A stretch of DNA of 64,000 nucleotides from a virus (IMGVR_UViG_3300042317_001691:14020-78019), one strand, 5' to 3'. Positions 37,861 through 63,266 are shown, counted from the first letter of the stretch. Translations and numbers: made by a program. The notes: generated by a model not told the origin, from the sequence alone.

Positions 37861-37903
37861 CTTGAAAAAGATTACACTTATAAATTATTTTTTTGAAATA
37901 GAT

Positions 37904-39559: not shown

Positions 39560-39560
39560 A

Positions 39561-40532: not shown

Positions 40533-40611
40533 GGCTATTAAAAATATAATACACCATGCGAGAGAGCAACTCAAGATGAATCGGAAAAATTTATCTGTTC
40601 CCAGGATTTTC

Positions 40612-41600: not shown

Positions 41601-41601
41601 T

Positions 41602-43116: not shown

Positions 43117-43118
43117 TT

Positions 43119-44183: not shown

Positions 44184-44204
44184 AGACTGCTTTAATAAAT
44201 TTAT

Positions 44205-44645
44205 ATGTATTCTGATTTCTTACCAACAATAACAACGTGTGATTTATTATCACTATTTACTCCAATTAAAGCTAATTCCCTTACGGAAGGATTTGAGAAA
44301 ATTAATGGCGTTTCTTTAAAGACGACCCTTGAAAATCCCACTTCCGAATCTCAGAGTGATCATAAGTTAAAATTCAAACTGCCTGGATACGAAAAAAATG
44401 AGATTAAAATCTCTATTGAGAATTTTGATAAATCTAGAAGATATAGGGTAATTGAAGCCGCTGGCTTTTTAAAGGTCACCATTGTAGCTCAAAACAAAGA
44501 AGAGGGCACGACTAGATATGAGGGATACTTCCCTCAATCGGTTGATGACTCAACAATTCAAGCAAAATTAAATAATGGCATTTTGACACTAACGGCAAAA
44601 ACAGATCCAAAGAAAACAAGGGAAAGAGAAATTCAAATTAGTTAA
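44205..44645 (+). CDS. Small heat-shock protein (Hsp20/alpha-crystallin)
   Basis: LPGYEKNEIKI, AKLNNGILTLT, terminal IQI motif. Confidence 0.85.
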   Translation: MYSDFLPTITTCDLLSLFTPIKANSLTEGFEKINGVSLKTTLENPTSESQSDHKLKFKLPGYEKNEIKISIENFDKSRRYRVIEAAGFLKVTIVAQNKEEGTTRYEGYFPQSVDDSTIQAKLNNGILTLTAKTDPKKTREREIQIS

Positions 44646-44674
44646 GGCTTCAAAAAACTTTTCTAATTAAATTG

Positions 44675-44705
44675 AAACCCGTCGAATTTGACGGGTTTCT
44701 TTTTT
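44675..44705 (+). terminator. Rho-independent terminator
   Basis: AAACCCGTC-GAATTT-GACGGGTTT-CTTTTTT. Confidence 0.85.
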
Positions 44706-44714
44706 ATTATACGT

Positions 44715-45107
44715 ATGCCAATTTATTCTTTTATCAATAAAAAAACGGGAAAAATTATTGAAGTTTTTCAATCAATGAATGACGTACACGAATACAAGGG
44801 GGAATCTGGAAAAGATGAAAATTGGGAAAGAGTTTTTCATATTCCGAATGCTTCAATTGATACTAAGCAAGATCCTTTTAGTGATAATCAATACCTAGAC
44901 GTGACAAAAAATAAAAAAGGCACGTATGGAAACATGATTGATTACAGCAAAGAATTGAGCGAAAAAAGAGCAAGTCTAAATGGCGGTATCGATCCCATTA
45001 AAGAAAAGCATTACGAGAATTATTCAAAACAAAGAAAAGGCGCAAAACATCCAGACAAAATGAAAAAGAGTTTTGAAAATAAACACGTAAAAATTGATTT
45101 AAGCTAA
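44715..45107 (+). CDS. FmdB-like zinc-ribbon protein lacking its cysteines
   Basis: MPIYSFINKKTGKIIEVFQSM parallels the FmdB pattern MPIYEYxCxxCGxxFExxQxM. Confidence 0.6.
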   Translation: MPIYSFINKKTGKIIEVFQSMNDVHEYKGESGKDENWERVFHIPNASIDTKQDPFSDNQYLDVTKNKKGTYGNMIDYSKELSEKRASLNGGIDPIKEKHYENYSKQRKGAKHPDKMKKSFENKHVKIDLS

Positions 45108-46274
45108 TATAACTAAATCTCCATTTGTTGATGACAATTTGTGTCCATCAGAAGAATGAAGTTTCATAAAATTTTCATCTTGGTCAGAAACTTCTAGCAG
45201 AGTAAACTTTGCTCCAGACTTATCACTTATTTCTATTGAGCACTGAATAGAATAATTTAAAAATCCATCCATTGATAATGAATAATTAAAACTTTCTACT
45301 GTTATATTTTCAAATTTAATTTCCGAATAGTTTAATCCTAATCCACTTTTTCCAAACCTTAAGATTATATAAAATTTTGAATCGGAATTCTTCAAAGAGG
45401 AAAGGGACTTTTCATTAAACTGTGAGGTTATACCTTGAATACTGAGTGATGCAAGACATGGAAATAGAAAAGCTCTTTCTAGTGGACTCATGCCCCTTTC
45501 AAAGAAAAAGAAATTATTCCTTTTGAAATCTAAAGAAAAATCCATTGACTGTATATTCGACGAACCTAAAACTGATAGGTCCGAAGAAGGTATCTCCAAA
45601 GACGAGTAGTCAGTTAATAATTCAAAATCTATTGCAGTTGTATTTATTTTGTCGCTGACATCAAAATTTGTTTTATAATAAAATGAATCTATCCAAGTAT
45701 TTTCTAATTTTATATTATTGCCAGAAGGATCTTGTGCATAATACGTATTTGAAATATTTAAAACATTTGATATTTTAACATCATTAAAAGAAAAAGAAAG
45801 ATTGCTAATTGGAAGTTTTCCGTCTCCATAAGAAAAAGAATAACTATTTAAAAAAAGTTTTTTAAACACAAAGCATAGCAAGTCTTCTGAATATCCATTA
45901 GATCTTACTTTATATAAAATATCTTCTCCATCTTTTTCATTTAAAAATAAAATTGCAGTTTCAATGAAATTGTTTTGAAATTTATTCAAAATGGAAGCGT
46001 TATCCTGAGAAGATGTATTTACAAATAAACCAATAAGCATTTCAAGCAAGAAATTTTTCTCTTGTATCAAAGATATATTTAAGCTGAATTCTGGATTTGT
46101 ATAAAACTTTTTATTTAGATTGCTATTGCCAATTGATTTTTGAGATATCTTTTGCAGATTTGAATTCAATTCAACATTTTGTAAAAATGGAATAAATTTA
46201 AATTCTGATAAATTTGCATTAAATGCAGATCTATCAAGTGCCAAAAGCGAAGAATTGTACCTAAATAAAGACAT
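45099..46274 (-). CDS. Tail tube-fold paralog (tail tip/baseplate proximal); probable start at 46274
   Basis: LFLNSYSFSYGDGKLP and IQSMDFSLDFKR...FP parallel segments of the major tail protein; TAATG coupling. Confidence 0.6.
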   Translation of the reverse strand: MSLFRYNSSLLALDRSAFNANLSEFKFIPFLQNVELNSNLQKISQKSIGNSNLNKKFYTNPEFSLNISLIQEKNFLLEMLIGLFVNTSSQDNASILNKFQNNFIETAILFLNEKDGEDILYKVRSNGYSEDLLCFVFKKLFLNSYSFSYGDGKLPISNLSFSFNDVKISNVLNISNTYYAQDPSGNNIKLENTWIDSFYYKTNFDVSDKINTTAIDFELLTDYSSLEIPSSDLSVLGSSNIQSMDFSLDFKRNNFFFFERGMSPLERAFLFPCLASLSIQGITSQFNEKSLSSLKNSDSKFYIILRFGKSGLGLNYSEIKFENITVESFNYSLSMDGFLNYSIQCSIEISDKSGAKFTLLEVSDQDENFMKLHSSDGHKLSSTNGDLVILA

Positions 46275-49200
46275 TATATATCCCCGATTACACAGATGCA
46301 AATACAAGCATCTGAATTTATTAAATAATTATAAGGATTAGAGTAAATAAAATTTGACAAATCATAATTAATCATTGCAACATTTTGTATTATTCTACTG
46401 CTTCCAGTCTCAGAAACGCTTGAACTTATTGCTCTAGGCAAGGTCACCGAATCAATCCAACAAACATTAGAAATAAGAGTTCCTTCTGGTGCAATAAATT
46501 TCAATCTAGTATTATTAAAATTATTTATATTATATATATAGTAATAAACTCCAGAAGTGCAATTATCAAAATCTAGTGGTTCGTAATTTTTTAATTCTAA
46601 AGTTTTTATTGGACTACAAATACAGCTTAACACATAATTAGAACTTAAATTTATAGGCTGAACACCACTAAATGTAAAGTATTTTTCCATACAAATACAT
46701 TTGCCAGACAGACTTTGAAGTATATCTTCTGAATTATAGAATAAACTTAAATTATTTCTCAGCAAAGAAAATCTAGCATCTTCTTTAAATCCAGTTGGCG
46801 TTCCAGTTATATTCCCAAATTCATCAATCAATATACAAGTTCCAGTTGATCCACCAGTAAAATTAATTGAACAAGATATATAATTTGTATTCTCATTAAA
46901 TATTTTGCAATTTAAATAAAATTCACCAGAGCAACAATTATATCCAGATTCAAAAAAAGTGATCCCAGTAGATATTGGAAATATATAGCTATACCCATCT
47001 CCACCAGTGTGCTTAAAAGCTATAGGATTAGAGTAGTCATAATTAAAAAATGAAATTTTTTCTTCAATTAAAAAATTTCCACTTCCACTTGGAATTATTG
47101 TATTGCACGTATAAAATTCATCTTTCAATTCCATCATAAATAAATTATATTCTGAGCTTCCATATGAAAAGCCAGTATAATTGATTGCATGAACTACACC
47201 ATTGTTTAATTCAGAAATTAAGAAAAACAAAAAATTATTCAATCCATAATTCAAATCGTCACTAAAACTAGAATATGGATTAATATAAAATTTATTATTA
47301 TTTTGAATTTTTAAATAAGTATTTAAATTTAATGAAACTGACGGAGCTTCATAGCCAATTAAATTTTCATTTTTTATTTTAGGAAAATTTAAGCAAATTA
47401 GATTTGAGTCGTACTGCAGACAATTAAATGAAAATCCACTATAACAAATACAAGAATCAAAAGTATTGACAATATCAATAACCTCATAATCATTTATTAT
47501 TTTAAAATTTCTTAAATTTAACGCTTTAATTGGAAAGTCAAAGTTGATGCATTTTCCAGTTACATCTAATATAATATTGACATTTATATCTGGTGGATAA
47601 TAAGTAATATCCCTGTATAGGATAGCGTCTACTGGATTATATCTATACTCCAATCCACTATAAGTAAAAATATTTTCACTATTACTTAGGAATACTTGGT
47701 AGCTTTCGGAATTTAAAGCGCCAGTCTTATCGAGCAATGAATTTGTATTTTTTCTTGATTCAGAAAAATTTAAATCTACGTAAAACATTTCTGGAGAATT
47801 TCCAGTATATCCAGAATCATTTATATCAACTAATTCTATTAAATTCTCAAAGCAAGAAGCGTCAACCACAAAGCTTTCACACCAATTCCCAGAAGATCCA
47901 GTTTCAAAAGAATAATTAAAATCTGCAAGTTCAAAACAATAAGACTGTGGAAAAATTTCGGACGGCGGAAGATATAAGTTTGAACGATTTAATGATTTTG
48001 TTTTTATATCTTTTATTGAAAAACCGCAATTTGAAACGAGACAAGATAAAGCGTTATTGCTTGAATTATTTGAAAAATTTAAAATTGAATTTCCACTTAA
48101 ATTGCAACAGTATATTTCACCATTTAAAATAATACATTGGTTTGAATAGCCATCTCCTCCACTGTTTATATATTTAAAATTATAAATTTTTTCTTCACTT
48201 GAGCTTATGTTATAATATAAACATAAGTTTAAATCATCTATAATTTCAACATTATGACCACTGTTGTATATATTGCTAGATATTAATCCATTCTGATTAT
48301 ACAAAGAAACGCAATTAATTCTTGTTAAGCCGCTTATGCAATTGAGCCCATAATTACTAGTATGATGTATTTCGCATTTAATATCAAAATTTCCAGTTTT
48401 GCAAAAAATTAAATCCAAGGAAATTCCAGAATTCACGTATCTTTCTAATGAAAAAGTATGTGGCATTAAAGAGTCTTTGGGAAACTCTCTTGGCTGAATG
48501 AGCAATAGAGTACCGCTTCCAGAACTCAAAGATCCAGTTGGATATGAAAAATTTCCACTGACGTCTAAGGTATATGGGAAAATACCAGTTGTGTATTTTA
48601 AAGATCTAATTCTTCCATCAAAAAAAGCGGATGGTGTATTAGTTTGGTGCGCACCCAGAACAAATTTACAATTACATATTGTTGGAGTTGGAAATATAGC
48701 ACCACTAGAACAATCTAAATATGCAGTTAAAATTCCATTTATATATCCATATAAACAGCAACAATCAGAAGCTACCATTAAGTGATAAAAACATCCAGTG
48801 CTAAATGTTTCATTTGATATAGCAAAATCAACATAACTACCGCAGGCGGCTAACTGCATTCCGACTCCACCTTCACCAAATCCCAATATAAAATAATTTC
48901 CATCTTGCCCGTTCCAAGCGCCATCGCCTCCGCCCTTCGCTATGACAAGCCCGTTGCCTGGAGAAAGCACGGTTTCCCAAGCGAAACATCCACTTAAATC
49001 AAAAAAATCATAATTCCCAGAATTAGGATCGCAAACAAAACTCAAATAGTTAGTTCCATCAAAAACCAGCGATCTATAATCCTCTAAATATAAATTTTGA
49101 TTTTCAATAAAGTTGCAAGTCTTTACATTGCCTTGATTGCATAAAACTATTTGACATGATCCTTGATTTATTGGAATTGAACATCCAGAAAGATATTCGT

Positions 49201-49751: not shown

Positions 49752-50723
49752 CTATATTACATAATAATATTGATTATTATCAATTAAAATATTTGGGTTG
49801 GGATCTTCGGAAAATAAAACGTCAATATCGTGGCAATTTTTATATTTGAATACGTGACTCCATTCCGTGCAAATAAAAACCTTCTTTTGATTAAAGAAAA
49901 CTGGAAAGTCATAAATGAATCTTCTGTATCCGCATTTTTTTTCCAAAAAGAACAAAATCGATAGACACTCATCATCATCTATTGACTCAAATTTAATTCG
50001 ATACTCTTTGAGAATATTCGAATTTGATTTATACTTTAAATTTTGAACAAAAGAATTTTTATAATCAAATTTACGAAAATCTAATTCATTTTCTAATTGA
50101 AATGGCAATTTAGGAAAAAAGTTAAAATTTTTAGTCCAATTGTTTCTATTAAAAGCTCCAGCAGTTATGTCCTGTTTAGCAAACCAAAAATTATCAATCT
50201 TATTGCTTGTTACGGAATATTGTTCATTGTAAACAAATTGATTTTTTCTATAACTTTTTGACTCGGAGAAATTTAAATCAGAAATATTAAAAAATGAACT
50301 TGTTTTCCAAGTTAATATTGGGGCTTTAAATGGACACGATATTTCTAAAGTAATTTCATTCAATTGGTTGCTAGATCTAGATATTGAATAATCTTCGACA
50401 TATCCAATAAACTCTTTATATAGACCAGAACTATCGCTAAACTTTAATGGCTTGAAACCTCCAGCGGTTTCAATTGTCTTTAGTAAATTTCCAGCTTCGG
50501 TTTCGCTTAATAAAAATCTCAAAGAGTAATTAGAAATTAAATTATTCTCAGATGCAGGAAGCACTTTCAATGCATTGTCTACAGTTTCTATGAAATTATA
50601 TTTAGATTTAAAATTTATAGAGGAACCATAAATTGGTTTGTAAATTGAAAGATCATTTACATAAGCATACTTGGGATCTATGGAAGAATCCCTATCATAT
50701 AAATATGGATTATTGTACGCCAT
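49752..50723 (-). CDS. Distal tail protein with tandem lambda gpM-like domains
   Basis: Two repeats: YSLRF...LLKTIETAGGFKPLKF and YRIKF...ILFFLEKKCGYRRFIY...ICTEW. Confidence 0.7.
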   Translation of the reverse strand: MAYNNPYLYDRDSSIDPKYAYVNDLSIYKPIYGSSINFKSKYNFIETVDNALKVLPASENNLISNYSLRFLLSETEAGNLLKTIETAGGFKPLKFSDSSGLYKEFIGYVEDYSISRSSNQLNEITLEISCPFKAPILTWKTSSFFNISDLNFSESKSYRKNQFVYNEQYSVTSNKIDNFWFAKQDITAGAFNRNNWTKNFNFFPKLPFQLENELDFRKFDYKNSFVQNLKYKSNSNILKEYRIKFESIDDDECLSILFFLEKKCGYRRFIYDFPVFFNQKKVFICTEWSHVFKYKNCHDIDVLFSEDPNPNILIDNNQYYYVI

Positions 50724-51558
50724 AATATCCTATAAAATCTTTTTTAATCTCAAGAGTATTTTCATTTGAGATTTGAATTGAATCACTAATTAATTTTGCT
50801 CTTCGTATTGGAAGACTTAATAAAGAAGATCCAGTACCAGAAACATTAATATTGAAATCAGAATTTTTTGAAGTAAAATCGTCGTATTTATTAATGTCAA
50901 TGTTGGTAATATTTCTAACCAATTTTGCATTTATTGATGACTTTATTTCTAATGGTAAAATTAAAGAAACTTCGATAGGACTTAGTCCGCTGCCTATAGA
51001 ATAAAATGGCTGCCTCTTTATCGTCATCTGATAATCAAAAGCATATACATTGTATTTTGTTTTTAAATTTAGATCATATATTCCAGATATGGAAATTGAG
51101 TCTATTGAAGGTATGTCAATGTACTGAGAGTATTTTTCTATTTCCAAATTGTTATATTTTGGCAATTCATTTAATTGATTTATGTCACCTCCATATGACA
51201 CAAAAGAAGTTGAAACTTTGGGCAAATCTCCAATCCCAAAGTTTGCCGAATATGAATTCATGTAAAGATTGTTTACTTGATAGTACTGAGTCCCATTATA
51301 AACATATAAAGAATCAATCTTCTTGTCGCCAGTGAATTGAAGTAAAATATCATTTTGAATAATACTTCTCTCAAAGGTTAATTGGATTTCTTGTGGAGAA
51401 TTTAATAAGTACGTGTTATCTGAAATGCCCAAAGCGTACTCTGAATTATAAGAAAGAATTTTTTGAAAATTTAAACTATTAATACCATCAATTTCAATCA
51501 TCTTTTTAGTGGCGTCTCCACTTAAAAAATATATTTTATAATAGGATGGGTCTATCAT
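50710..51558 (-). CDS. Tail tube-fold paralog immediately after the TMP
   Basis: LYMNSYSANFGIGDLPKVSTSF and FDYQMTIKRQPFYSIG...P parallel the major tail protein. Confidence 0.65.
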   Translation of the reverse strand: MIDPSYYKIYFLSGDATKKMIEIDGINSLNFQKILSYNSEYALGISDNTYLLNSPQEIQLTFERSIIQNDILLQFTGDKKIDSLYVYNGTQYYQVNNLYMNSYSANFGIGDLPKVSTSFVSYGGDINQLNELPKYNNLEIEKYSQYIDIPSIDSISISGIYDLNLKTKYNVYAFDYQMTIKRQPFYSIGSGLSPIEVSLILPLEIKSSINAKLVRNITNIDINKYDDFTSKNSDFNINVSGTGSSLLSLPIRRAKLISDSIQISNENTLEIKKDFIGYYGVQ

Positions 51559-51559
51559 A

Positions 51560-54500
51560 TTATCTCAACATGCCTCCTAATCTTTTTTCTTCTTTTATTA
51601 CTCCCATTACAACTTCTTTAATTCTTCTGGCCATTTCTCGATTTTGACGGTCTTGATTTTCGGAAGAATCTTCTTCTTCTTTTTTAGATTTTCCGCTAGA
51701 GTCTGAATTCACAGTTATATTTATGGTTCCGACTCCACTGACTTTTTCCACTAATTCCTCTAATTTTGATTCTATTCTTGAGGTAGATTCATCTGAAGCG
51801 CCACCTGATCCTCCTCCACCAGAATTCATTTTTTGCAAATTATTGTATCCAATATTTTGAGCAGCTTGCTTTGATATAACAAATTCTCCACCATTTAACA
51901 TAGCTGGGACATTATCTCCCATGCCATTGCCTGGAATATATCCACCAGCAGCCCTGCGATTTCCCAACATTTTTTGTAAATACAAGTCTTTCTCTTTGGG
52001 AGTAAGACTCGTTACGGATTGATTGGGATTAAAAATATCTTTAGCATCGCCTCCACCAAATCCAAGATCGCCCATATTCATTCTCGAAGAGCTATAAGAT
52101 TCAGAAGGTTTAAACAAATTCATCGGATTCAATTTAGGCGCACTAAAACTCGAACTTGGGGACTGCCAACCATAAGTAACAGGAGTCCCTAACTGATCGT
52201 AGCCTAATCTACCAAAATTTTGAGCCATTCCATATCTACTGTTAAAAACGTCCTCGCTCATATTAACGTAGGAACTGCTTTTTGAATCCCACATTGCAAG
52301 ACCTTCTGTATTATTTAGTCCAGCTTGACCAGCACCTATTACAGAAAAATCTTTATACCCAGAAGAACTAAACATATTAGCTAGCCCACCTCTTGTTTCA
52401 CCCCCCATTGTTCCACCCGTAAATCCACCCATTAATTTTTCACCAAATGTGGCGGTTCCACCTTCTGCGGCTGCAGCTTGAGCTGTTGAACTCCATCCTT
52501 GTCCAAAACTATTTGCGGCGGCTCCAAGTGCGGCCATGCCTACAGACATTCCTATCTGAACAAGCATTCCTTTCATTTGTGCTTTTCTTTGAGCTTCTTG
52601 TTGTTTTTTAAATTCTTCAATTCTTTTTCTTGCTTCTTCTTCTATATTGAATTTTTCTTTTGTTGCTCCTATTCCTTCCAGATATAAATCAAAAGCTTTT
52701 TGTTTGGATTCAAGGTATTGTTGATTCATTGAGTTTTCTTGATTTCTCAAGCCAAAAAGAGTAAAATTGCCACTTCCTGCGCTTAAATTAATACCTTGCG
52801 GTCCAATTTTATCGAATTGAGTTCCTGTTGTTTGTTGAGTTGCGTATGCTAATAAATTTTTCTGACCCATTATTGCACCAGCTCCTCTTTCTCCAGGCAT
52901 AAAGAATCCACCTTCACCCGTTTGTTGGTTCTTGGCGTAGAAATCGCTCTGAGCTTTCATTAGAGCCATTTGCTTATCTTCTTCTTTCCCCTTATATGAA
53001 GATAAACCTATTACTTTTCCACTCTCGTCAAAAGACATGTCCCCAACTCTTGTTTGGCCGTATGGGGTATATTTTTTTGGATTAACCACCAAATCCTTTA
53101 GATCTGCTTCTTGAAAACCAACCATTCCGCCATTGGCGAATCCTTGAATTTTTCCAGAGTTTAATCTATCAAGAAAGCTTTTGCCATATTTTGAGGCGGC
53201 CTTTTTATTTATAACATATTCTCCACCCATTAACATTGCAGGGACATCATCTTTTGTCCCAGAACCGCCTACAATTGGTCCACCACTTGCACGTTCAACA
53301 TATTTCATTGATTGACCGCTAAGATCAAATGCGCCACCAAGTAAACCTCTAGTCAATTTATCTGCCATGTTACCCATTAATGCATCATTAATCCTTTGCA
53401 AGAACGATGTGGCCGCGCCAAGTAAGGCGTCTTTAACCGACTTAGTGCCACCAGAAATATCCTTCATTGCCTGAAGCATTGAATCTCTAAAGGCCATCGG
53501 TATATCTTTTCCAAGTTTTGTTTCAAATTGATTGATATTGGTATCTAATTCACTATAATAAGATTCAAAACCTGCAGCCATTCCACCGCCTCTATAATAT
53601 CTTTGCTTTTCTGCAGTTTTAAGTGCTTTTTCTTTTTCTCTGTCTGCAGCTTCTTTTTCCTTGGGAATTGCTCCAGGTACAATAAGAGATTCAGCTCTAT
53701 TTTTTGCTAATGTAGTTCTCGTTTGTTGTAGTTTGGTCTCTAATTCAGTTATTTTTTTATCTATTTCGGCAATCTGATTCTTATTATCATTCTCCTCTTC
53801 TGGAGAAACGGGTTGTTCCAAGATGCTTTTTTGATCTTTTAATTTTAATAAATCCGCTGCAATATTTTTTGAATCTTGTTCACGTAAAATTCTATCAATT
53901 TCACTTGAATTTGATTCGCCAGTTTCAATTGGGCTAGGCTTTCCAGAAAGTTCATTAGCAGCTCCAGTTACAATTCGTTTAAATTCTTTCGCTGCCGAAA
54001 CTACCGTATCTTCAAATCCTTTTGATTGTAATTCCGTGGCTTCTTGTATAACCTTTAAATACTCTTCTGGAGTTTTTGCTTCGGCTGCCCTTCTTTGTAA
54101 TTCTATGTCTTGTGGCGCTATTCTTTGAACTTCATTGAAAACATTTCTTCTAGTTTCTAATGCGGCTTGAGCATTCTTTGTTTGAATGTCTTGCAACCTA
54201 TCTGTATAAGTATTTTGCGCTCTTTGGACAGCAAGTTCATACTCATTGTCTCTTCCAGCCTTGTATGTCAAACTAGAGATTTCTAATTCTGCATCCCTTA
54301 TTTCTCGTATTGCAGAAAGTCTTTGCTGTTGGATCTGTAAACCTTTTTGCTGTTTATCTAAGTTGGAAGAGATTATGTCTCTTTCTGCTTGTAGATAGAA
54401 ATTTTGTTGTTTTGCTACGGCGGCATTTAATGTAGCTTGAGCGTTATCCCTTAGTCTTGCTTTGGATTGCCTTTCGGCAAGTTCTACTTGCAAACTAAAA

Positions 54501-57500
54501 AGTTTGTATATTCCTTTGAGAACTTCTTCTTGCGCTCCGAGAGTTTGAAGTTTATTTTCTTGATCTATTAAATCTTCTTTATTCAGCTCTAAAGTTCTAT
54601 CTAATATTTCAACTCCATACTCAAGTTCATTTTTCTCTAATATTAAATTTTCAATTCTATCTTGTATTTGTTTTGCAATCTCTTCTTGCTTACCCTTTAC
54701 TGGATCTAAAGCCCTTAATAAACCTGCTATTGCAGTTTTTTGAGCCTCAATTCCTTCAGCTTCTTGTACCTTTCTATAAGTTCCTCTAATTTCATTTGCT
54801 TGAGGTTCAGTTAAAGAACTCGCTCCAATTTGTAAAAATTTATTTATTCTTTCTTCGCCAACTCCTGCTGCAATATTTTGTATTTCTCCCTCCAATTTTC
54901 TTCTTTCTTCGAGAGCTTTTATTTCTAAATCTATTTGTACTTTCCTCGCTTCAGAAGTTGACAGCAACTCTTTTTCAATAGATAAAGAGTTTTCTCTTGC
55001 AGTTGGGATGGAGAATTCGAGTTGTTTAATTTGCTGTCTTATTCCTAATTCTTTTTTCAATAATTCAGATTCAATTAACAAAGCTTCTTCTCTTAGTGAA
55101 GCTGCGTATTGAACTATATTTGCTTCTCCAGCGAGGGTTTTTATATATTCTTGAAATAGTTTATATTTTCTATCTAAATTTACTCCTTCAACTTCTTGTC
55201 CATTTAGAATTGTGTCTTCAAGATCTTTTTGTTTTTGCTTTAATTCAGCAATGTCCTTTTCCACTTCTAATTTTCGCTTATCAGTTTCCAATTTAATTGC
55301 TCCAAAACCTTTGTCATCACCACTTAATCTCCTCTCTAAAAATGCTATTTTTTCTTTTACATTTTGCAATCTAAAATTAAAAGCTTCCTTCGGTGAAGTT
55401 TTTTGTTGGAACGCAAGAAATTCAGCAGTATTTTCTGGCCTAATACCAAATTGTTTTTCAAGTTTATCGATACTAACTTTCTGTTGAGAAAGTGGAACTC
55501 TTTTTTTTATTTCTTTTGAAGCTTCTTCGATATCTCTAACAAAATTAGCAATTGTAAAATTAACCCCTTCTTTGATTTCATCTGGTCCTGCAATATAGTT
55601 CGGCCCCTTTTCTTCTCTTATTTTTTGTTGAATAATTGGAATTAATTGATTTCCCAAAGCTCGCGTTAAATCCCTATTTCCACTGTTGCTCAATCCAGTT
55701 TTTCCTAAAGCGTCTGTAAGTTGTTTTTCATCTTCACTACTAAAAAAAGTAGAAAATCCGCTTCTATTAAAAAAACCTCTAAATCCAGCCCCCGAAACAT
55801 TTCCAGATTCAGAAATAGATTCTAGAATTTTTTTCTGTTGATTGTTTAAAGTTACGCCATATTTTTGAGTAGCTTCATCGAGCACGCTCATTGCTTTTTC
55901 AGTTTCTGAAACCGTTCCATTCAGAACTTGAAAAATTTTATCTGCAGCGTCTAATCCTTCAAAAGCTAAGAAAGCATAAGGTAATACCTTTAAAGCTTGT
56001 CCAGCGATTGCTGCAACACCTCCTTTTTCCCTTAAAGCCGCTCCTACGCTTTCCAAAGGACCAGCTTCAGCTTCTCTTGCAGCAGCATATGCTTGACCAG
56101 CTTTTGTTTCTTCAAATCTTTTGCCTTCATTAAATATATTATCAATTAAATCTTTTGATTCTTGTAGTGAATAAACTGCAGTACCTAAACCACTAATTGC
56201 TTCTCCAACAACTTTTGTACTTTCTCCAAATTTACTTAATACACCAGAAACAAATGATAATGCCGCTTGCCATTTAAATATATTAAATGTTGATTGTTGG
56301 ATTGATTTTATTTCATCATTTTTAGCATCAACTACTTTTCCAGATGCATCAGCTTCCGCTGCTTTACTTTCATTATTTTGATTTTGTGGATTTGGTGCTG
56401 GTAAACCTTCGACTCTAGCAAGTAATCTATCTTCAATATCTTTAGTTGTTGTAGACAAAATCCTTGCAGCATTTTCAATTGGACGAGCTAAGTCTTCGCC
56501 TATTTTATTGAATCTTTCCTCTAATGATTTAAAAATTATTTCAATCTTTTCTGGTGAAATTCCATCACCATCAGCAAAATTTGGAATCTTACCGTTCGGT
56601 TCGTCGCGTTTATTTATAACGGCTAAACCGTCTGGGTTTTGCCTATTAATTAATCTATTGTCTTTAACTACTGAAATTGCAGAAAGCGGAAGACCCGATT
56701 CAATCTTTTCTCTTGAGATTGCATCCATCAAAGCTCCACTTGCATAGTTTGGAATATATCCAGAATAAGCACTGGAAGAACCTCTTTCACGCTCTCGCAA
56801 ATAAGCTTGTCTTCTTTCCGATCTTTTTTTTGCTGCTCCTTTTAGATTTCTTTCGGGATTTGGAGCATCTAGTGCAGCTTTTATGGTTTTTATGACTTCT
56901 ATTGCATCAATCCCTTCTGGCATGTCAAAAATACTTTGAATTGCTTGATTCGCTAACTGTTCTACAATAGGATTTTTTACGGATGTTTTTATAAAATCCT
57001 TTAATCTTTTAATTATTCCATCTCCTTCGCCGACAACTCCATCTCCATCAAAATCTTCAGTGGGGTTCGCAAAATTAGGAATTCTTAAATTTGAATCTGC
57101 TTTTAATCTTTTTGAAGCTGGATCATATTTGACGCTCGACATCCAAGGCTGAAGTCCCGTTGGTACGCCGCCAGAAGAACTAAATTGTTGTACCAGAGCT
57201 TTATACTCTTCACTTCTGCCATAATTCCAACCTTTCCAAGTTGAATAAGCTTTATAATCACCTTGTGTTATTTGACTTATGAAAGTTTTAAGAATTTGTC
57301 GCCTTGCGAGTTTTTGTTTTTCTTGTTCTTCTAATTGTTTCTTTTCTGCCGCCTTGCGAAGTCCAACGCTCGAAACTCCCTTTGGAAATGCCTTAGAGGA
57401 GAATGGCATTAAATAGCTAAGATTTTTTTCATTCAATTCAGACGCATCTAGCTGAACGCCTCTTAGCTCTTCGTCTTGAGAAGTAAATTTAGCTTGGAAT

Positions 57501-60500
57501 CCAACTAATTCTGGATCATATTTTTTTACGCCTTCAATTGCAGCATTTTTTAATTTTAATGTATTTTCCCTAACTCTTGAAGTAATCTTCCAGAGATCTG
57601 GATTATCTTTACGGAGGGAAGACGGATAAATTTGTTCTTTTTCATAAACTTTAGCAATTGCTGCTAATTTGACCTCTTCCCAAACATCGTTTAATCCTTT
57701 AGCTCTCCAAAATCTAGAAAATAGTTTTCCTAAATTGCCGTATTGCAGATTTTTAAATTTTCCTTCAACATCTCCCTCTAAAATATCATTTGGCTGAACA
57801 TTTAAAACTGAAGCTCCAAAAAAACCTCCGTTTACTTCGCCTGTAGTAGCGCCTTGTGAACTAGCTCTTAGAACAAAGCGTTTTAAATTCTTTACGGCAT
57901 CGGGTTCAGAGCCTTCAGTAAAAAATGTATTATTTCCTAAAATAGAAGCAACAATTGCGTTCTCATCTAAGACTGGATTTCTTCGCGAATCAAAACTTCC
58001 AACCACAGTGCCAGTGAATCCTGTTCCTCTGATTTCATCTAGAGTTGATTCCAAAGGTCTATTTGCTTGTAAAGCATAACCGATACTGCTTCCATATCTT
58101 GTGCCAAAACCTTTTAAGTTAGAAGTTTTTGCAAAATTAGGAATATAACCTCTTAAAGCTGAACTTGCTGGATTGAAATAGCCTTGAGTATCAAACATTG
58201 TATGTTTGCCGCCCAATCCTCCAACCAATTCATTTAGTGCTGCAACTTGTGGACTTTTATCTAATTGTTTAAATATGTAATTGTCTACTTCCCTGTCTGT
58301 AATATTCTTTTTCGAAGAGAAAAACTCGTTTGTTTTTTCAAGCAAGAAATTTTGCATGATATCATTGACTTTGAAATTTTGCGCGTAAACATCGTCAATG
58401 CCAATTGAATTAGGTCCGTATATTTTTTTATATTCTGAAACGACTCCCCTAACTCCAGCCTGAGCCATTACTTCGGATAACAAGTATGCAAAGTTTGCTT
58501 TTAGTTGTTGATTTTTAAAATTAGCTTGTGCAAATTCATCTACGCCAGAATCGGTTACCACTTCTCTTTCGAATCCAGCTAGCAATCCATTTTTGGTTAA
58601 AGTTTTTCCTACGTTTGTAAATGAAATTGCATTTTTCTTAAACAAAGTTGGATTTGCATTTTCAAAATCTTTGATGGCTTTATTTACATCGTATTCTTTT
58701 TGAATCTTTTCCCCGCCAGGTTTGTAAAATATTTTTTGACCAAAACCTTGTCCAGATTTTGGAGCTAAGAATTTTCCGCTTTGACCACCGCCAAGCTCAT
58801 TAAAGTCTGGATCGGAATAGAGCATTCCTGCTCCAGATCCAGTTAGTTCTGAGAAATTTGGAATGAAACCAGAGGCTGCTGAAGTGACCAATAAACCATT
58901 AACTTGAAAGTTATCAGTAGCCGTAGTTAACAATTTGCCTAAATCATTATCTCTTCCATAATTTTCAAAAATTGCTCTACGAAACTTATCTTCAACACTT
59001 GAATTTGAATAGCCTCCACTTTTAACCTCTAAAAAATTTAAAGAAGATCCATTTTTTTTAACACCATCCACATCTGAAGATCCATCTATTTTAAAACCAT
59101 CTATAGCTGAAGATCCTTTATATTTTAAAGAAGAATTATCTTTATAATCTTTTGATTCTTTTAATTGTTTCAAAATTCTATTTTCGTAATCAATTGGACT
59201 TTCATTTTCATTTAATTTAGGAATTTTTATTTTTTCAATATTGGGATTTACGCTAACTGAATCTAGAGGAATTAACTTTTTATCTGAAGCTAATGATTTT
59301 TTTAAATTATATTTTATTCTTGGATAACGAGCTAAAGATTCCGCTGTTTCTGCGGAAAAATTAGGAATATATCCACTAGCCGCAGATTTAGCGCCGCCAT
59401 AATCAGCAAGAAATCTTTCTCTTAAATTTCCACCTTTAAGTAATTCATTAATTGTTTTTCGCGTTAAGTCTTGTACTAAATCTTTTTTTGTAGCTTTAAC
59501 TTCTACGTAATTAAAATCTTTTTCTGGCAGACCGTATTCTTTTGCGATCTTTGATTTTAATCCATAAATATCAAAAGAACTTCTTTCATCGGAGCCACCA
59601 GAAGCAGTAAATTGCCCCCAATTGTCATCCAAGAAATCCATGTTTGCAGCTTTCAACATTATTTCAAAAAAGCCACCTGCAGTTTGATCATTTATGAAAT
59701 CAAATTTCTGCCCTTCTTTTAATGCATAATCCATTGCATCTGTGGGCTTTATTTTCAAATAGTCTAACTCTTGTTTTATAAATTCTCCAATTTTTGGAGA
59801 TAAGGTTGCGTTCGCCCTTGCCTTGAAGAGATTTTTGATATCTTCTTCTTTTGCTTTTATAGCATTGAGATTTTCATTTTCTCTTCTATAAACATTTCCG
59901 ACTGGAATATTATCAACTCCAAAGGCTCCATACTTTTGAAAAATACTTAAAAGAGTGGGGTCGCTTTTTACAGCTTTTTCTAAATTTTCTCTTTTAAATC
60001 TTGCTCTAATTAAATCTTGATCGCCGCCTATAGTTAATCCAGCGATGCTATATTTTCCTGCATCTAATACTAATTCTGGAAGACCAGTTTGATTTTGGGC
60101 TGGATTTGCGAAATTTGGAATAAATCCTCTTGCTGCGGATCTGGGGCGATAATTGGGAATGATTGCGTCTCCACCAGTTCCAGCAAAATTTGGAATCCTT
60201 CTTTCATTGCTATTATAGACCATCGTTCCGCGCTTACCACCACCCATCGGAAAATTATTATCAACAATAATTCTTGAGCCTGCTGGAGCATTTTTCTTTT
60301 CCTGCATCACTGCACTACCAATAGGCATATATCCACCAGCAGCTTTCTTAACTTCTTTAACGCCTTCTGGAGAAGAACGAATTCCACCCTCATACAAAAC
60401 AGGAGCAATTGTCTTGCTTATGGAAGACATTTTTTCTAAAAATGCGGCCTGTTCTCTGTATATGCCTAAAATATATTCTGCTTGTTTAGCCTTGTTTCCC

Positions 60501-61987
60501 TCTAAAGAAAGAATTGTTGCTTGAACATCTTGATTTTTTGTCAAAGCTGCAAAGATGTCTCTCTCTAAAGTTGCTTGTTCTTTTTTTGCGCTGTTTACTC
60601 CAAGCTGAGTTTGAATACTATCTGATAAAAATTTACCGAAATTAGTAAGAAGTTTTAATCCGACTCCTGCGGCCAAAAGTAGACCTGGACCAGATAAGAC
60701 ATTTCCAATTCCAGCTACGATACCTTGAGCAAGTTTGTTTCCTATCGTTTCTCCTTCGTCGCCACCAGTTAAGGCTTTATTAATTGAACCTACGGCAGAA
60801 TCTAAAGCACCTAAAATATTTTTTAAATTACCAGAAAGACCAATCTTACCAATATTGCTCGCCAATTCAGAACTGGACAAAACTAATCTATCAAAAGTTG
60901 CCGAAGTTGTTCGGCCCAACTGCTCGACTTTTCCAAATGCTTGATTTGTTGCTGTTTGAGATTCAGATAAAGATCTAGCAAAAACTCCATTTGCATCAGC
61001 GACATCTTTTAAAACAGCAGATAATTTATCAATTTGAAAACCGCCGCCGATTTTAATTAAAACACTTTTTCTGGTGGCGTCATCAAGGTATTGTATCTCA
61101 GAAGCTAATTTTCTAATAATAGTTGTAGCGGGAAGTAAATTTCCCTCTACATCATTAACTGCTATTCCTAAACTTTTTAAAAGATCAAGATTTTCTCTGC
61201 CTTGTACTCTTGTGAAAATTGTTTTTAAGGCGTTACCGATAACGGCTCCACCTCTAGCTGTTTTTTCTTGAAGTGTTGTGATTAATGCGGTTAATTCATC
61301 AAAAGAAACTCCAGCTTCTTGAGCTACCGAAGCCGAACGAGTTATACCTTCAATTAAATCTTTTGAACTTACTGCAAATTTTGTATCGACGGCAGCTAAT
61401 TTATTTACTACCTTTTCGTAATCAAGTCCAACATCATTAAAAGAACTAACTGCTGCAGTTAAACCTCTTACAGATTCAGCGGCATCTAAACCAGTTGTTC
61501 TGGTTAAAACAAGTGCCGCTTGAGCCCTTTTCAGAGACTCTTCCATTCCAGCACCTTGACGAGAAAATTCTAATGCTGCATTTGCGGCATCTTTAAATGA
61601 TGTTCCAGTTAATTTTGCGACATTGAAAATCCCTCGCCCAAGAGATTCCATATTTTTTGCCGTCTCTCCAGAAGTTACAGCTATTTCTGTAAGCGTTCTT
61701 TCTACATCAATACTAGAAACAACGATTGATTCGAAAGCTTTGGCGACTGCATTTAATACTCCAACGGAAGCTCCGAATGCGAGAACGCGAGCGTTCGCGG
61801 CCTCCATTGATTTTGTGAACTCATCTGCTTGTCCAGTAATTTTACCAAGTGGGCGACTAATAGAATCTAAACCGCGTGCGTTTATAGTTGGAACTATAGT
61901 TACCTGCGCTCTACGAGCCGCATTGGAAATATCTGCTTCCATGCGACTTGTATCCGCTGATACTGGTATTCTGATTTCGTCCGCCAT
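51560..61987 (-). CDS. Tape measure protein (3475 aa) carrying an internal cassette array of cargo domains
   Basis: TP901-type TMP core (AALEFSRQG, AVRGLTAA, DKLAAVD-like, TARGGAVIGNALKTIFTR); long coiled coils; two GGxxxGxGxxDxVPAML..GE motifs; nine IPN[FY] repeats. Confidence 0.93.
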   Translation of the reverse strand: MADEIRIPVSADTSRMEADISNAARRAQVTIVPTINARGLDSISRPLGKITGQADEFTKSMEAANARVLAFGASVGVLNAVAKAFESIVVSSIDVERTLTEIAVTSGETAKNMESLGRGIFNVAKLTGTSFKDAANAALEFSRQGAGMEESLKRAQAALVLTRTTGLDAAESVRGLTAAVSSFNDVGLDYEKVVNKLAAVDTKFAVSSKDLIEGITRSASVAQEAGVSFDELTALITTLQEKTARGGAVIGNALKTIFTRVQGRENLDLLKSLGIAVNDVEGNLLPATTIIRKLASEIQYLDDATRKSVLIKIGGGFQIDKLSAVLKDVADANGVFARSLSESQTATNQAFGKVEQLGRTTSATFDRLVLSSSELASNIGKIGLSGNLKNILGALDSAVGSINKALTGGDEGETIGNKLAQGIVAGIGNVLSGPGLLLAAGVGLKLLTNFGKFLSDSIQTQLGVNSAKKEQATLERDIFAALTKNQDVQATILSLEGNKAKQAEYILGIYREQAAFLEKMSSISKTIAPVLYEGGIRSSPEGVKEVKKAAGGYMPIGSAVMQEKKNAPAGSRIIVDNNFPMGGGKRGTMVYNSNERRIPNFAGTGGDAIIPNYRPRSAARGFIPNFANPAQNQTGLPELVLDAGKYSIAGLTIGGDQDLIRARFKRENLEKAVKSDPTLLSIFQKYGAFGVDNIPVGNVYRRENENLNAIKAKEEDIKNLFKARANATLSPKIGEFIKQELDYLKIKPTDAMDYALKEGQKFDFINDQTAGGFFEIMLKAANMDFLDDNWGQFTASGGSDERSSFDIYGLKSKIAKEYGLPEKDFNYVEVKATKKDLVQDLTRKTINELLKGGNLRERFLADYGGAKSAASGYIPNFSAETAESLARYPRIKYNLKKSLASDKKLIPLDSVSVNPNIEKIKIPKLNENESPIDYENRILKQLKESKDYKDNSSLKYKGSSAIDGFKIDGSSDVDGVKKNGSSLNFLEVKSGGYSNSSVEDKFRRAIFENYGRDNDLGKLLTTATDNFQVNGLLVTSAASGFIPNFSELTGSGAGMLYSDPDFNELGGGQSGKFLAPKSGQGFGQKIFYKPGGEKIQKEYDVNKAIKDFENANPTLFKKNAISFTNVGKTLTKNGLLAGFEREVVTDSGVDEFAQANFKNQQLKANFAYLLSEVMAQAGVRGVVSEYKKIYGPNSIGIDDVYAQNFKVNDIMQNFLLEKTNEFFSSKKNITDREVDNYIFKQLDKSPQVAALNELVGGLGGKHTMFDTQGYFNPASSALRGYIPNFAKTSNLKGFGTRYGSSIGYALQANRPLESTLDEIRGTGFTGTVVGSFDSRRNPVLDENAIVASILGNNTFFTEGSEPDAVKNLKRFVLRASSQGATTGEVNGGFFGASVLNVQPNDILEGDVEGKFKNLQYGNLGKLFSRFWRAKGLNDVWEEVKLAAIAKVYEKEQIYPSSLRKDNPDLWKITSRVRENTLKLKNAAIEGVKKYDPELVGFQAKFTSQDEELRGVQLDASELNEKNLSYLMPFSSKAFPKGVSSVGLRKAAEKKQLEEQEKQKLARRQILKTFISQITQGDYKAYSTWKGWNYGRSEEYKALVQQFSSSGGVPTGLQPWMSSVKYDPASKRLKADSNLRIPNFANPTEDFDGDGVVGEGDGIIKRLKDFIKTSVKNPIVEQLANQAIQSIFDMPEGIDAIEVIKTIKAALDAPNPERNLKGAAKKRSERRQAYLRERERGSSSAYSGYIPNYASGALMDAISREKIESGLPLSAISVVKDNRLINRQNPDGLAVINKRDEPNGKIPNFADGDGISPEKIEIIFKSLEERFNKIGEDLARPIENAARILSTTTKDIEDRLLARVEGLPAPNPQNQNNESKAAEADASGKVVDAKNDEIKSIQQSTFNIFKWQAALSFVSGVLSKFGESTKVVGEAISGLGTAVYSLQESKDLIDNIFNEGKRFEETKAGQAYAAAREAEAGPLESVGAALREKGGVAAIAGQALKVLPYAFLAFEGLDAADKIFQVLNGTVSETEKAMSVLDEATQKYGVTLNNQQKKILESISESGNVSGAGFRGFFNRSGFSTFFSSEDEKQLTDALGKTGLSNSGNRDLTRALGNQLIPIIQQKIREEKGPNYIAGPDEIKEGVNFTIANFVRDIEEASKEIKKRVPLSQQKVSIDKLEKQFGIRPENTAEFLAFQQKTSPKEAFNFRLQNVKEKIAFLERRLSGDDKGFGAIKLETDKRKLEVEKDIAELKQKQKDLEDTILNGQEVEGVNLDRKYKLFQEYIKTLAGEANIVQYAASLREEALLIESELLKKELGIRQQIKQLEFSIPTARENSLSIEKELLSTSEARKVQIDLEIKALEERRKLEGEIQNIAAGVGEERINKFLQIGASSLTEPQANEIRGTYRKVQEAEGIEAQKTAIAGLLRALDPVKGKQEEIAKQIQDRIENLILEKNELEYGVEILDRTLELNKEDLIDQENKLQTLGAQEEVLKGIYKLFSLQVELAERQSKARLRDNAQATLNAAVAKQQNFYLQAERDIISSNLDKQQKGLQIQQQRLSAIREIRDAELEISSLTYKAGRDNEYELAVQRAQNTYTDRLQDIQTKNAQAALETRRNVFNEVQRIAPQDIELQRRAAEAKTPEEYLKVIQEATELQSKGFEDTVVSAAKEFKRIVTGAANELSGKPSPIETGESNSSEIDRILREQDSKNIAADLLKLKDQKSILEQPVSPEEENDNKNQIAEIDKKITELETKLQQTRTTLAKNRAESLIVPGAIPKEKEAADREKEKALKTAEKQRYYRGGGMAAGFESYYSELDTNINQFETKLGKDIPMAFRDSMLQAMKDISGGTKSVKDALLGAATSFLQRINDALMGNMADKLTRGLLGGAFDLSGQSMKYVERASGGPIVGGSGTKDDVPAMLMGGEYVINKKAASKYGKSFLDRLNSGKIQGFANGGMVGFQEADLKDLVVNPKKYTPYGQTRVGDMSFDESGKVIGLSSYKGKEEDKQMALMKAQSDFYAKNQQTGEGGFFMPGERGAGAIMGQKNLLAYATQQTTGTQFDKIGPQGINLSAGSGNFTLFGLRNQENSMNQQYLESKQKAFDLYLEGIGATKEKFNIEEEARKRIEEFKKQQEAQRKAQMKGMLVQIGMSVGMAALGAAANSFGQGWSSTAQAAAAEGGTATFGEKLMGGFTGGTMGGETRGGLANMFSSSGYKDFSVIGAGQAGLNNTEGLAMWDSKSSSYVNMSEDVFNSRYGMAQNFGRLGYDQLGTPVTYGWQSPSSSFSAPKLNPMNLFKPSESYSSSRMNMGDLGFGGGDAKDIFNPNQSVTSLTPKEKDLYLQKMLGNRRAAGGYIPGNGMGDNVPAMLNGGEFVISKQAAQNIGYNNLQKMNSGGGGSGGASDESTSRIESKLEELVEKVSGVGTINITVNSDSSGKSKKEEEDSSENQDRQNREMARRIKEVVMGVIKEEKRLGGMLR

Positions 61988-62007
61988 TCCTTAATCCTTT
62001 AATGTTC

Positions 62008-62013
62008 TTACAC
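62008..62013 (-). promoter_or_regulatory. GTGTAA candidate late-promoter motif
   Basis: 20 nt upstream of the TMP ATG, just after the tube-gene terminator. Confidence 0.5.
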
Positions 62014-62014
62014 G

Positions 62015-62053
62015 AAAATAAAAAACCCGCCCCTTTCGAGGCGGGTTTTTTTT
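62015..62053 (-). terminator. Rho-independent terminator after the major tail gene
   Basis: Minus strand CCCGCC-TC-GAAA-GG-GGCGGG-TTTTTATTTT. Confidence 0.9.
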
Positions 62054-62069
62054 ACGAATGCTAAATTTA

Positions 62070-63266
62070 TTAGTAACCCCAGTTTCCTGCGGGATAACCA
62101 CCTGCACCAGTGGTATAAGATCCAGACAAATAGATACCATTATTTGTATCTGAAGGTCCACCAATTTGTGTTTGGAACACAAGATCTACTGTTTTATTTG
62201 CTCCAATGCTGGAGGAGAAAGATTCACTTTGTAATTGAGAGCCTTTCAATGTGAATATCATTGCATTAGATCCTTCGCCACCTGGCTTCTTAATTGTTAA
62301 AGTGATATCTCTTTTTGAATTATCATCTAACATTTTTGCCAAGCTTCTCGATTCAGTTTCATTTACAATTGCACTGACATTTAATGTTGCGACGATTGGA
62401 AAATCTACCACGCGAGCAAATGCAAATTTTGAACCCAATCTTTCAATTGGAGTACGACTTAATGGAAGCTGCAAAGAGGCGCTTTGAATATTAATTGAGC
62501 TGTCTCCAGCAACAGATGCGATTGGAGTACCACCCGTTCCTGTATAAGAACTCCAAGAAAGCGTAACATCTCCAGGGCGTAAAGCAGTAATAAATGTATT
62601 TCCATTATCTCCAGTACCTTCCGTAGGACTTGGCAATTTTCCAGTTTTATTAAGCTCGGTTCCAGAAACTGGTAGAATACTTGGTGAATCAACAAAGTTT
62701 CCAGTTGCTGCTCCTGCTCCAACACCAGTTGTTCCAGTAATAGTAGAAGATTTAATGTTTAAGCCTTCAACTGTAACACTCACAGTTGGAAGATTTCCAA
62801 CGCTGGCATCAAAAGTATAGTTACTTAAAAATGCATTTCCAATTGCAATAGCAGTTTTACCACCTAAAACATTTTCTCCAGTTCCCAAAGTATTTAAATC
62901 ACTTCCCTCGCCCGCAGTTACGATATAGAAGTTTTGTCCGCTTGAGTTTCCCATTTGACCAGATGCAAAGTTTCCATCTGTTGCAGTTCCATAGACATCG
63001 TTTCGAACATAAAAACCCAAAGTTTTTTCATTATAACCGTCAGTTGGATAATATGAAAAATCTAATGTTACAGTGGGAGATGTCAAAACCAATGCGTCAA
63101 TACGAGCTAATTGACCAAATTGGTTTACGTCTTGACGTTCAATACTAAAATTATAGTTTGCACTTTGAACTCTTCTTAATTGAGCATGTTCTCCAGAACC
63201 AGTAGAATCAATGTTCTTACTGACATACAAAGCTTCTGATTGATAAATTACGCGATTTCTTCCCAT
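62070..63266 (-). CDS. Major tail tube protein (tandem tube fold)
   Basis: Directly upstream of the TMP and followed by a strong terminator; two repeats (VQSANYNFSIERQDVNQFG / IQSASLQLPLSRTPIERLG). Confidence 0.8.
   Translation of the reverse strand: MGRNRVIYQSEALYVSKNIDSTGSGEHAQLRRVQSANYNFSIERQDVNQFGQLARIDALVLTSPTVTLDFSYYPTDGYNEKTLGFYVRNDVYGTATDGNFASGQMGNSSGQNFYIVTAGEGSDLNTLGTGENVLGGKTAIAIGNAFLSNYTFDASVGNLPTVSVTVEGLNIKSSTITGTTGVGAGAATGNFVDSPSILPVSGTELNKTGKLPSPTEGTGDNGNTFITALRPGDVTLSWSSYTGTGGTPIASVAGDSSINIQSASLQLPLSRTPIERLGSKFAFARVVDFPIVATLNVSAIVNETESRSLAKMLDDNSKRDITLTIKKPGGEGSNAMIFTLKGSQLQSESFSSSIGANKTVDLVFQTQIGGPSDTNNGIYLSGSYTTGAGGYPAGNWGY

Follow-up and report, generated by a model that had tools for sequence, protein, structure and literature searches.

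The tape measure protein (TMP) described here is encoded in a stretch of viral DNA of 64,000 nucleotides (nt), IMGVR_UViG_3300042317_001691:14020-78019, which is referred to below, at its full length, as the window. The middle of this protein of 3475 amino acids (aa) is an array of cassettes, in which five modules, fenced by copies of a short peptide with the core IPN[FY], are set between conserved N- and C-terminal parts (Table 1). An array of this kind had been proposed in an earlier note made from the sequence of the window alone, and it was confirmed by the comparison with related phages, in which the units of homology bounded by the peptide vary. The identity of the protein as a TMP was established from its N-terminal region. 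Residues 125–315 matched PF10145 (PhageMin_Tail) with an E-value of 1.2e-29 and a score of 104 bits, against a cut-off of 33.2, and 12 PHROG tape-measure families matched aa 11–508. No Pfam match besides PF10145 was obtained for the rest of the protein. Both marks of the TP901 family of TMPs, the PF10145 core and the position within a block of tail genes, upstream of those for distal and minor tail proteins, were found. The window has a GC content of about 32%, and the best explanation of its origin is a large, uncultured, aquatic and long-tailed phage with a TMP scaffold of the TP901 type.

Table 1. Features of the TMP gene, with positions counted from the first nucleotide of the window.
Feature	Position	Strand	Description
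TMP gene P0001	51560-61987	minus	Open reading frame (ORF), 3475 aa; PF10145 and PHROG matches
N-terminal core	60326-61987	minus	aa 1-554; scaffold; hydrophobic stretches at about aa 63 and 419
Left bracket	60098-60325	minus	aa 555-630; degenerate copy AAGGYMP, then IPN[FY] at aa 598, 610 and 623
IPN[FY], aa 598	60185-60196	minus	
IPN[FY], aa 610	60149-60160	minus	
IPN[FY], aa 623	60110-60121	minus	Full form
Module 1	59390-60097	minus	aa 631-866; near-universal core module; E775, D806, E829-x-K831
IPN[FY], aa 874	59357-59368	minus	Full form; linker 59348-59389, SAASGYIPNFS, low model confidence
Module 2	58886-59347	minus	aa 881-1034; rare; E935, D963, E987-x-K989
IPN[FY], aa 1042	58853-58864	minus	Full form; linker 58844-58885, SAASGFIPNFS
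Module 3	58163-58843	minus	aa 1049-1275; minimal protein-kinase-like domain
IPN[FY], aa 1282	58133-58144	minus	Full form; linker 58124-58162, SALRGYIPNFA
Module 4	57101-58123	minus	aa 1289-1629; families f10/f13, joined by hhalign at 98.8%
IPN[FY], aa 1636	57071-57082	minus	Short; linker 57068-57100, LRIPNFA
Module 5	56774-57067	minus	aa 1641-1738; small; homologues in about 13 TMPs; no Pfam match
Right bracket	56570-56773	minus	aa 1739-1806; full copy (aa 1745), conserved 56-aa element, short copy (aa 1801)
IPN[FY], aa 1745	56744-56755	minus	Full form; in right bracket
IPN[FY], aa 1801	56576-56587	minus	Short; DEPNGKIPNF; closes right bracket
C-terminal part	51563-56569	minus	aa 1807-3475; hydrophobic segments, coiled-coil-like at about aa 2200-2800, conserved C-terminus
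G-rich element D-x-V-P-A-M-L-x-G-G-E-[FY]-V, copy 1	53177-53308	minus	D at aa 2913; invariant columns
G-rich element D-x-V-P-A-M-L-x-G-G-E-[FY]-V, copy 2	51842-51973	minus	D at aa 3358; invariant columns

Relatives of the protein were collected by a word-indexed search, which gave 27 giant TMPs of 2000–4000 aa, and by pattern scans, which gave at least 196 TMP relatives in IMG/VR and at least 447 in metagenome contigs; 80 of each of these two sets were taken. JGI and TARA metagenomes are the source of most of the contigs taken, and the lake or ocean origin was read from the record names. No match was obtained when aa 560–1830 were searched with tblastn against 50,697 phage records, so that no cultured relative was detected, and the related phages make up a large, widespread, uncultured group of lakes and seas. 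The N-terminal core was 50–90% identical across about 600 aa in 23 relatives and was also retained where modules are absent. The C-terminal part was likewise conserved in relatives.

Nine IPN[FY] sites were counted in the TMP, against 0.025 expected from its composition, and all of them lie inside aa 598–1805, the restriction to aa ~600–1805 that had been noticed at the outset. Five of the nine have the full form AxxG[FY]IPN[FY][AS]. A six-frame scan of the 64-kb window detected three other IPN[FY] sites, none of them with the flanking consensus. The codons do vary synonymously among the copies, as had been noted for the linkers (Pro as CCA, CCT or CCC, Asn as AAT or AAC, Phe as TTT or TTC); the five full copies share 19–27 of 36 nt, with exact matches of 5–15 nt only. 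It is thus the protein sequence of the repeat that is conserved. In 163 non-identical related TMPs, 881 copies of the ten-residue peptide, approximately [ST]AAxG[YF][IV]PNF[AS], were found, with a median of six per protein. The profile reads A at position -5, A or S at -4, any residue, G at -2 and Y or F at -1, followed by I/V, P, N, F/Y and A; conservation reached 100% for P and for N, 99% for I/V and 100% for F/Y, and in some relatives V, M or T replaces I. The flanking phage DNA of the relatives, 1.3 Mb in total, contained no copy beyond the TMP ORF.

The codons also bear on an explanation by programmed -1 frameshifting, in which P-N-F, encoded in some copies by CCA-AAT-TTY, a canonical slippery heptamer, would give rise to truncated TMP isoforms. 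Four of the nine copies in the window do read A_AAT_TTY, as this explanation would have it. Among 544 copies, however, CCA was used in 37% at the motif vs. 49% in the background, AAT was also under-used, and slippery copies made up 24% compared with about 35% expected from codon usage. The heptamer is avoided rather than kept, and frameshifting, which we consider highly improbable, was rejected. The codon avoidance at the peptide may itself reflect selection against frameshifting.

To compare the modules, the TMPs were cut at each copy of the peptide and the pieces were clustered, families being counted if they had at least 80 aa. Treated in this way, the TMP of the window consists of the N-terminal core (597 aa), three close copies of the peptide, modules 1–5, a closing element of 56 aa and the C-terminal part (1675 aa). 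The pieces of modules 1–5 measure 251, 168, 240, 354 and 109 aa, and they bear out the sizes that the earlier note had given for the segments between linkers. A total of 57 internal families was obtained, and 47 architectures, of one to six modules each, were observed among 125 complete TMPs, the commonest being a module of the module 1 type alone. Near-universal units are module 1 and the closing element, together with the N-terminal core and the C-terminal part; the others are variable, and modules of the module 3 and module 4 types are not arranged in the same order in all relatives. Only four groups of families were joined by hhalign (f4/f6/f22, f10/f13, f15/f17 and f8/f19), and the others were unrelated; modules 1 and 2, compared directly by hhalign, showed no relation beyond the peptide. 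The array is therefore not a diverged tandem repeat, because most of the module families are unrelated to each other.

Five relatives (L054, L071, L058, L061 and L074) kept the N- and C-terminal parts with nothing matching aa 630–1730, and another one (L057) consisted of the core, the closing element (that is, the right bracket) and the C-terminal part. Since these cargo-free relatives keep both ends, the middle of the TMP is the place at which modules are inserted into a conserved scaffold. The relatives carry from zero to six modules, drawn from at least 57 families. The expectation that the flanks are conserved while the modules vary was checked across the relatives and held, the flanks being conserved and the modules not invariant. 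Stand-alone relatives of the modules were not found among proteins shorter than 1911 aa (8000 candidates scored); nor were split genes or free-standing modules found, and the 1.3 Mb of flanks contained no motif-bearing cassettes.

The exchange takes place at the peptide. BLAST alignments of the modules cover the pieces from end to end, i.e., from peptide to peptide, and 67% of the 233 BLAST breakpoints within the array were located at most 12 aa from a copy, vs. 11% for random positions. When pairs of TMPs with N-terminal cores at least 95% identical were compared, 21 of 41 had the same architecture. L085 and P0025, whose cores are 98.8% identical, carry one module and three modules, respectively. 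In the nearest relative of the window (P0002, 90%), modules 3 and 5 are missing, slot 2 is occupied by an unrelated module, and module 4 is only 46% identical. At the DNA level, the pieces aligned by blastn in three pairs (L011/L100, L004/L007 and L002/L003) end and resume on the peptide with an overlap of 4–12 codons, a pattern characteristic of insertions or deletions that occur in frame from one copy to another. In L100, the copies at aa 1404 and 1561 flank a module of 157 aa missing from the 98%-identical L011 and share 25 identical nt; judging by these sequences, the site looks like a fresh insertion/deletion junction. The length typically shared is 5–13 nt. Homologous recombination on long repeats was ruled out as the general mechanism, as 90% of the copy pairs share fewer than 14 nt. 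Our reading is that recent events leave long junction repeats that later drift synonymously. The clustering of the breakpoints and the insertion/deletion junctions located on the peptide demonstrate that it acts as an in-frame recombination joint, one of the roles suggested for it earlier.

Among the modules of the window, module 3 resembles a protein kinase. Its AlphaFold2 (AF2) model, made with 19 relatives in the alignment, had a predicted local distance difference test score (pLDDT) of 80.8 and a predicted template modelling score of 0.79. All of the top 50 matches in the Foldseek search of the PDB were protein kinases, with E-values from 6e-4, template modelling scores of only 0.3–0.38 and a probability of 0.92–1.0 for all except one. 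The residues G1066/G1068/S1070/G1071, K1085, E1098, D1199, N1204 and D1266 are invariant in 20 sequences of 55–70% identity, and they fall on the matching predicted elements: the Gly-rich loop, the Lys of beta3, the Glu of alphaC, the D-x4-N motif and the metal-binding Asp. The domain stops about 10 residues past the last Asp (D1266) and contains a helical insert of about 60 aa. No Pfam family was matched at E-values up to 1, and membership of a curated kinase family was not found; a search with the profile of the module against 1.84 billion representatives gave matches in these TMPs only. The predicted structure and the alignment show module 3 as a minimal, bilobal protein kinase fold with a complete and invariant catalytic set. 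The kinase call of the earlier note thus stands at the level of fold and catalytic residues.

Module 1, whose families (f6, f4 and f22) are joined by hhalign, was modelled with a pLDDT mostly above 90. Five residues (G771, E775, D806, K831 and K844) vary little or not at all in 54–74 sequences of 15–48% identity, with complete or at least 90% conservation of E775, D806 and K831. In the model, E775 is placed on a helix, D806 at the start of a strand and the ExK motif on the following strand. This arrangement fits a PD-(D/E)xK nuclease, an assignment made at the level of the motif. In module 2, which has homologues in only about seven TMPs and no match among PDB sequences, E935, D963, E987 and K989 are invariant in five sequences. 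The conserved Asp of this module had been given as D974, which lies in an insertion absent from the relatives; it is D963, in S-A-x-D-G. The proposal of two PD-(D/E)xK modules was therefore borne out in part, as the E..D..ExK residues are conserved in modules 1 and 2, but neither of them gave a fold match. Module 4 matched neither Pfam nor PDB sequences, and its leads in the Atlas were weak (0.88–0.89) and pointed to viral hypothetical proteins, with one cluster containing PF18857 LPD38 (0.88). Nothing usable was obtained when the six module pieces of the window were searched against Pfam at E-values up to 1.

Modules with recognizable domains were also found in relatives. The GNAT family PF00583 was detected within modules bounded by the peptide in P0007 and P0022. 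Likewise, a peptide-bounded module of 378 aa (L119:5857-6990, plus strand) matched Ntox24, PF15529, with 26.1 bits against a cut-off of 24; Ntox24 is a domain of bacterial polymorphic toxins. The remaining 47 of the 49 module representatives gave no significant Pfam match, and neither LPD or MPTase peptidase domains nor other signature domains of polyvalent proteins were found in the 49.

It is rather likely that the TMP is a scaffold with a recombination-prone cassette site, carrying enzyme-like cargo that is delivered to the host by the tail. According to this account, a cassette site in the middle of a conserved scaffold, closed by two related brackets, holds the cargo, which consists here of the five peptide-fenced modules. 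The modules would ride inside the tail as part of the TMP and would leave it together with the TMP, before the DNA, at infection. They may then act on host targets, in take-over or counter-defence, as the RNA polymerase fused to the TMP of Thermus phage P23-45 does.

Several points weigh against the delivery of enzymes in this way. No immunity-like or protease partner was found by Pfam and PHROG searches of the TMP and its neighbors. The fold of module 1 was not matched in Foldseek searches of the PDB, BFVD, two VIA runs, a profile search of PDB sequences or the Atlas, the VIA runs being weakened by the use of a two-domain model of 457 residues, with the wide run dominated by the low-confidence helices of module 2. 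Module 2 has no confident fold (AF2 pLDDT mostly below 50), and only two of about 50 module families match an enzyme or toxin family of Pfam. In addition, three copies of a folded domain of 240 aa would be a tight fit in the lumen of a tail tube, so that the modules would need to be unfolded in the tail or accommodated in some other way. Finally, both the arrival of the modules in the host cell and their activity there are what we infer by analogy with the ejection of the TMPs of T5 and P23-45.

The peptide itself suggests a second function. It is conserved far above the modules that it separates, which argues for a conserved partner and against a passive spacer or a joint acting purely at the DNA level. 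Most likely, it also serves such a partner, either a processing protease or a component of tail assembly. In the AF2 models the copies form low-confidence linkers outside the folds, with a pLDDT below 50 at both ends of the module 3 model (residues 1–10, the aa 1042 linker, and residues 234–247, the aa 1282 linker) and of about 49–68 at the junction of modules 1 and 2. According to these models, the peptides apparently lie in disordered, flexible linkers.

A conserved short site located between every pair of domains, with invariant P and N and in linkers of the low confidence typical of protease sites, is what would be expected of a polyprotein. During tail assembly or after ejection, a protease of the phage or of the host would cut the TMP at each peptide, or the TMP would cleave itself at the invariant Asn, and the modules would be freed as separate enzymes. 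Cleavage on the C-terminal side of Asn via succinimide formation occurs in several virus coat proteins and favors this possibility, although such self-cleavage normally depends on a folded context and the prediction for the peptide is disorder. A TMP that is cut has a precedent in pb2 of phage T5, cleaved after R1127 with both parts remaining in the tail (PMC10038345), while gp96 of P23-45 provides the opposite case, being present at full length in virions (PMC10770324). The lack of a protease domain in the TMP and its neighbors and of split genes or free-standing modules also speaks against cleavage. The polyprotein is thus a possible explanation, though on balance a doubtful one. More doubtful still is a more specific proposal, in which processing at the peptide is programmed and the TMP is cut, on leaving the tail, into a phage-specific and rapidly reshuffled cocktail of enzymes (kinase, nuclease-like, acetyltransferase and toxin-type) active inside the host before any phage gene is expressed.

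The ends of the array were also compared. In both brackets, a long copy of the peptide and a short IPNF copy are combined with a conserved segment of about 50 aa. The cluster of copies in the left bracket is conserved across the TMP family. The right bracket was present in 81 of 97 TMPs, always as the final unit ahead of the C-terminal part, with 17 invariant residues. The closing element (f2) was aligned by hhalign with the left-bracket element of relatives (f11) with a probability of 94.6% over 29 columns; the f11 of relatives was used in this comparison, its equivalent not being separated out in the TMP of the window. From this profile similarity, the opening and closing elements look like paralogues. 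Moreover, the second copy of the G-rich element in the C-terminal part (51842-51973) starts with AAGGYIP and resembles the linker peptide, which hints that the peptide may have been derived from an older element of the TMP.

The reuse of an old TMP element, suggested by this resemblance and by the short copies in the brackets, would agree with a purely structural function. The modules would be spacers or would fill the lumen of an unusually long tail, and the peptide would dock the tube protein, a chaperone or the other two TMP chains and so hold the three chains in register; polymerization of the tube would pass stretches that are not coiled coils, and each inserted module would bring its own copy of the peptide. 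The exclusive occurrence of the peptide in the TMP points in the same direction, as do the near-universal presence of module 1 without a known enzyme fold and the short strand pairs that AF2 placed, with low confidence, between the first two copies. A complex prediction for the tube-like protein (62070-63266) and TMP aa 560–640 had a score of 0.00, which counts neither for nor against binding. By contrast, the invariant kinase-like catalytic set of module 3, the GNAT and Ntox24 modules and the conserved E..D..ExK residues point to enzymes, and the fast turnover of the content on near-identical scaffolds suits conflict-driven cargo better. Furthermore, the same scaffold occurs in TMPs without modules, and a tail can therefore be built without them. 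A structural function of the modules is accordingly unlikely, and delivery of enzyme-like cargo by an exchangeable site in the TMP is the account preferred here.

No description of a peptide-delimited array of multiple modules inside a TMP was found in the literature searched, and several known systems share some of its traits. The polyvalent proteins of phages and conjugative elements include minimal kinases without the C-terminal subdomain, GNATs and nucleases, and cassette-like recombination has been suggested for them (Iyer et al., 2017; PMC5512222). As in the TMPs analyzed here, these are giant phage proteins with unrelated catalytic domains, a variable content and a proposed entry into the host with the DNA (PMC5512222). 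The combination of unrelated domains in variable arrangements, which characterizes them, was found here as well, in the form of kinase-like, GNAT, Ntox24 and nuclease-like modules. However, TMPs are mentioned zero times in that study and no fencing peptide is described (PMC5512222); the carrier here is a ruler in the tail lumen and not a head-packaged protein, and neither a metallopeptidase nor any other processing domain was found in it.

The gp96 protein of P23-45 is a TMP of 5002 aa with an N-terminal virion RNA polymerase, which is uncleaved in virions and active at full length (PMC10770324). Like the protein of the window, it is the TMP of a long-tailed phage; its enzyme works in the host as infection begins, and gp96 is the experimental precedent for cargo carried by a TMP (PMC10770324). 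It differs in having a single N-terminal enzyme and no internal array, and no repeated peptide or swapping has been reported for it. In T5, pb2 is a metastable trimer in the tail lumen, and a maturation cleavage after R1127 separates its enzymatic part (Linares et al., 2023; PMC10038345). This is also a TMP with an embedded part, in this case muralytic, that is cut off during tail assembly. Unlike the array, pb2 has one cut, with no site of the P-N-F type reported, and one enzyme acting on the wall, without cassette variability. The Sle1-type effectors of actinobacterial contractile injection systems are TMP-related proteins with diverse functional domains (PMC13277306). The polymorphic toxins and MuF toxins share the conserved delivery part and the exchangeable domains, and Ntox24 is present in one relative. 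In contrast, these toxins have a single C-terminal toxin domain, usually with an adjacent immunity gene, and silent cassettes, whereas up to six internal domains are found here. The TMPs are not of this class, having multiple internal domains and tail genes downstream, with no immunity gene evident.

The gene order around the TMP was kept in 79 loci. Downstream of it lie the genes for a protein of 282 aa, a weak gpM-like minor tail protein, a protein of 1158 aa and one of 402 aa, and the ORF at 49752-50723 in this region showed weak matches to Phage_min_tail and phrog_14. Upstream, a tube-like protein of 398 aa is encoded on the minus strand (62070-63266). By BLAST, this protein forms one family, n1, with the proteins of 282 aa (50710-51558) and 402 aa (45099-46307), all of them on the minus strand, and the three paralogues around the TMP are kept in most of the related loci that reach beyond it. 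The n1 paralogues matched neither Pfam nor PHROG, and no PHROG family was matched by the 10 conserved neighbor proteins. Most relatives (L004, L046 and others) have three or four small genes (n4, n27, n3 and n2; 74–336 aa) between the gene of the tube-like protein and the TMP, which is the usual position of chaperones. In the window and its nearest relatives (L001–L003 and L008) no small genes precede the TMP, and just a gap of 82 nt (61988-62069) is present; no counterparts of n2, n3 or n4 were found in the window or within the TMP. Farther away, in the regions 36685-40574 and 40724-45107, the large and small subunits of ribonucleotide reductase are encoded on the minus strand, and a plus-strand block contains a dUTPase, a kinase-like protein, a single-stranded DNA-binding protein and an HSP20-family protein, according to the precomputed Pfam matches of the contig.

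The functions usually ascribed to TMPs are those of a ruler and a channel-former, to which a wall-degrading motif may at most be added. In this family, the module content turns over faster than the scaffold, as expected in an arms race, and the delivery of the modules to the host would amount to a first strike at the protein level, before gene expression. In that case, the modules would provide many candidate enzymes for host take-over or counter-defense, of unknown fold, with the peptide as a simple sequence rule for finding and delimiting them. The peptide may also mark a new step in the processing or assembly of tails. If the TMP is indeed a polyprotein, hundreds of aquatic phages would conceal a polymorphic system of effector delivery in the ruler of their tails.

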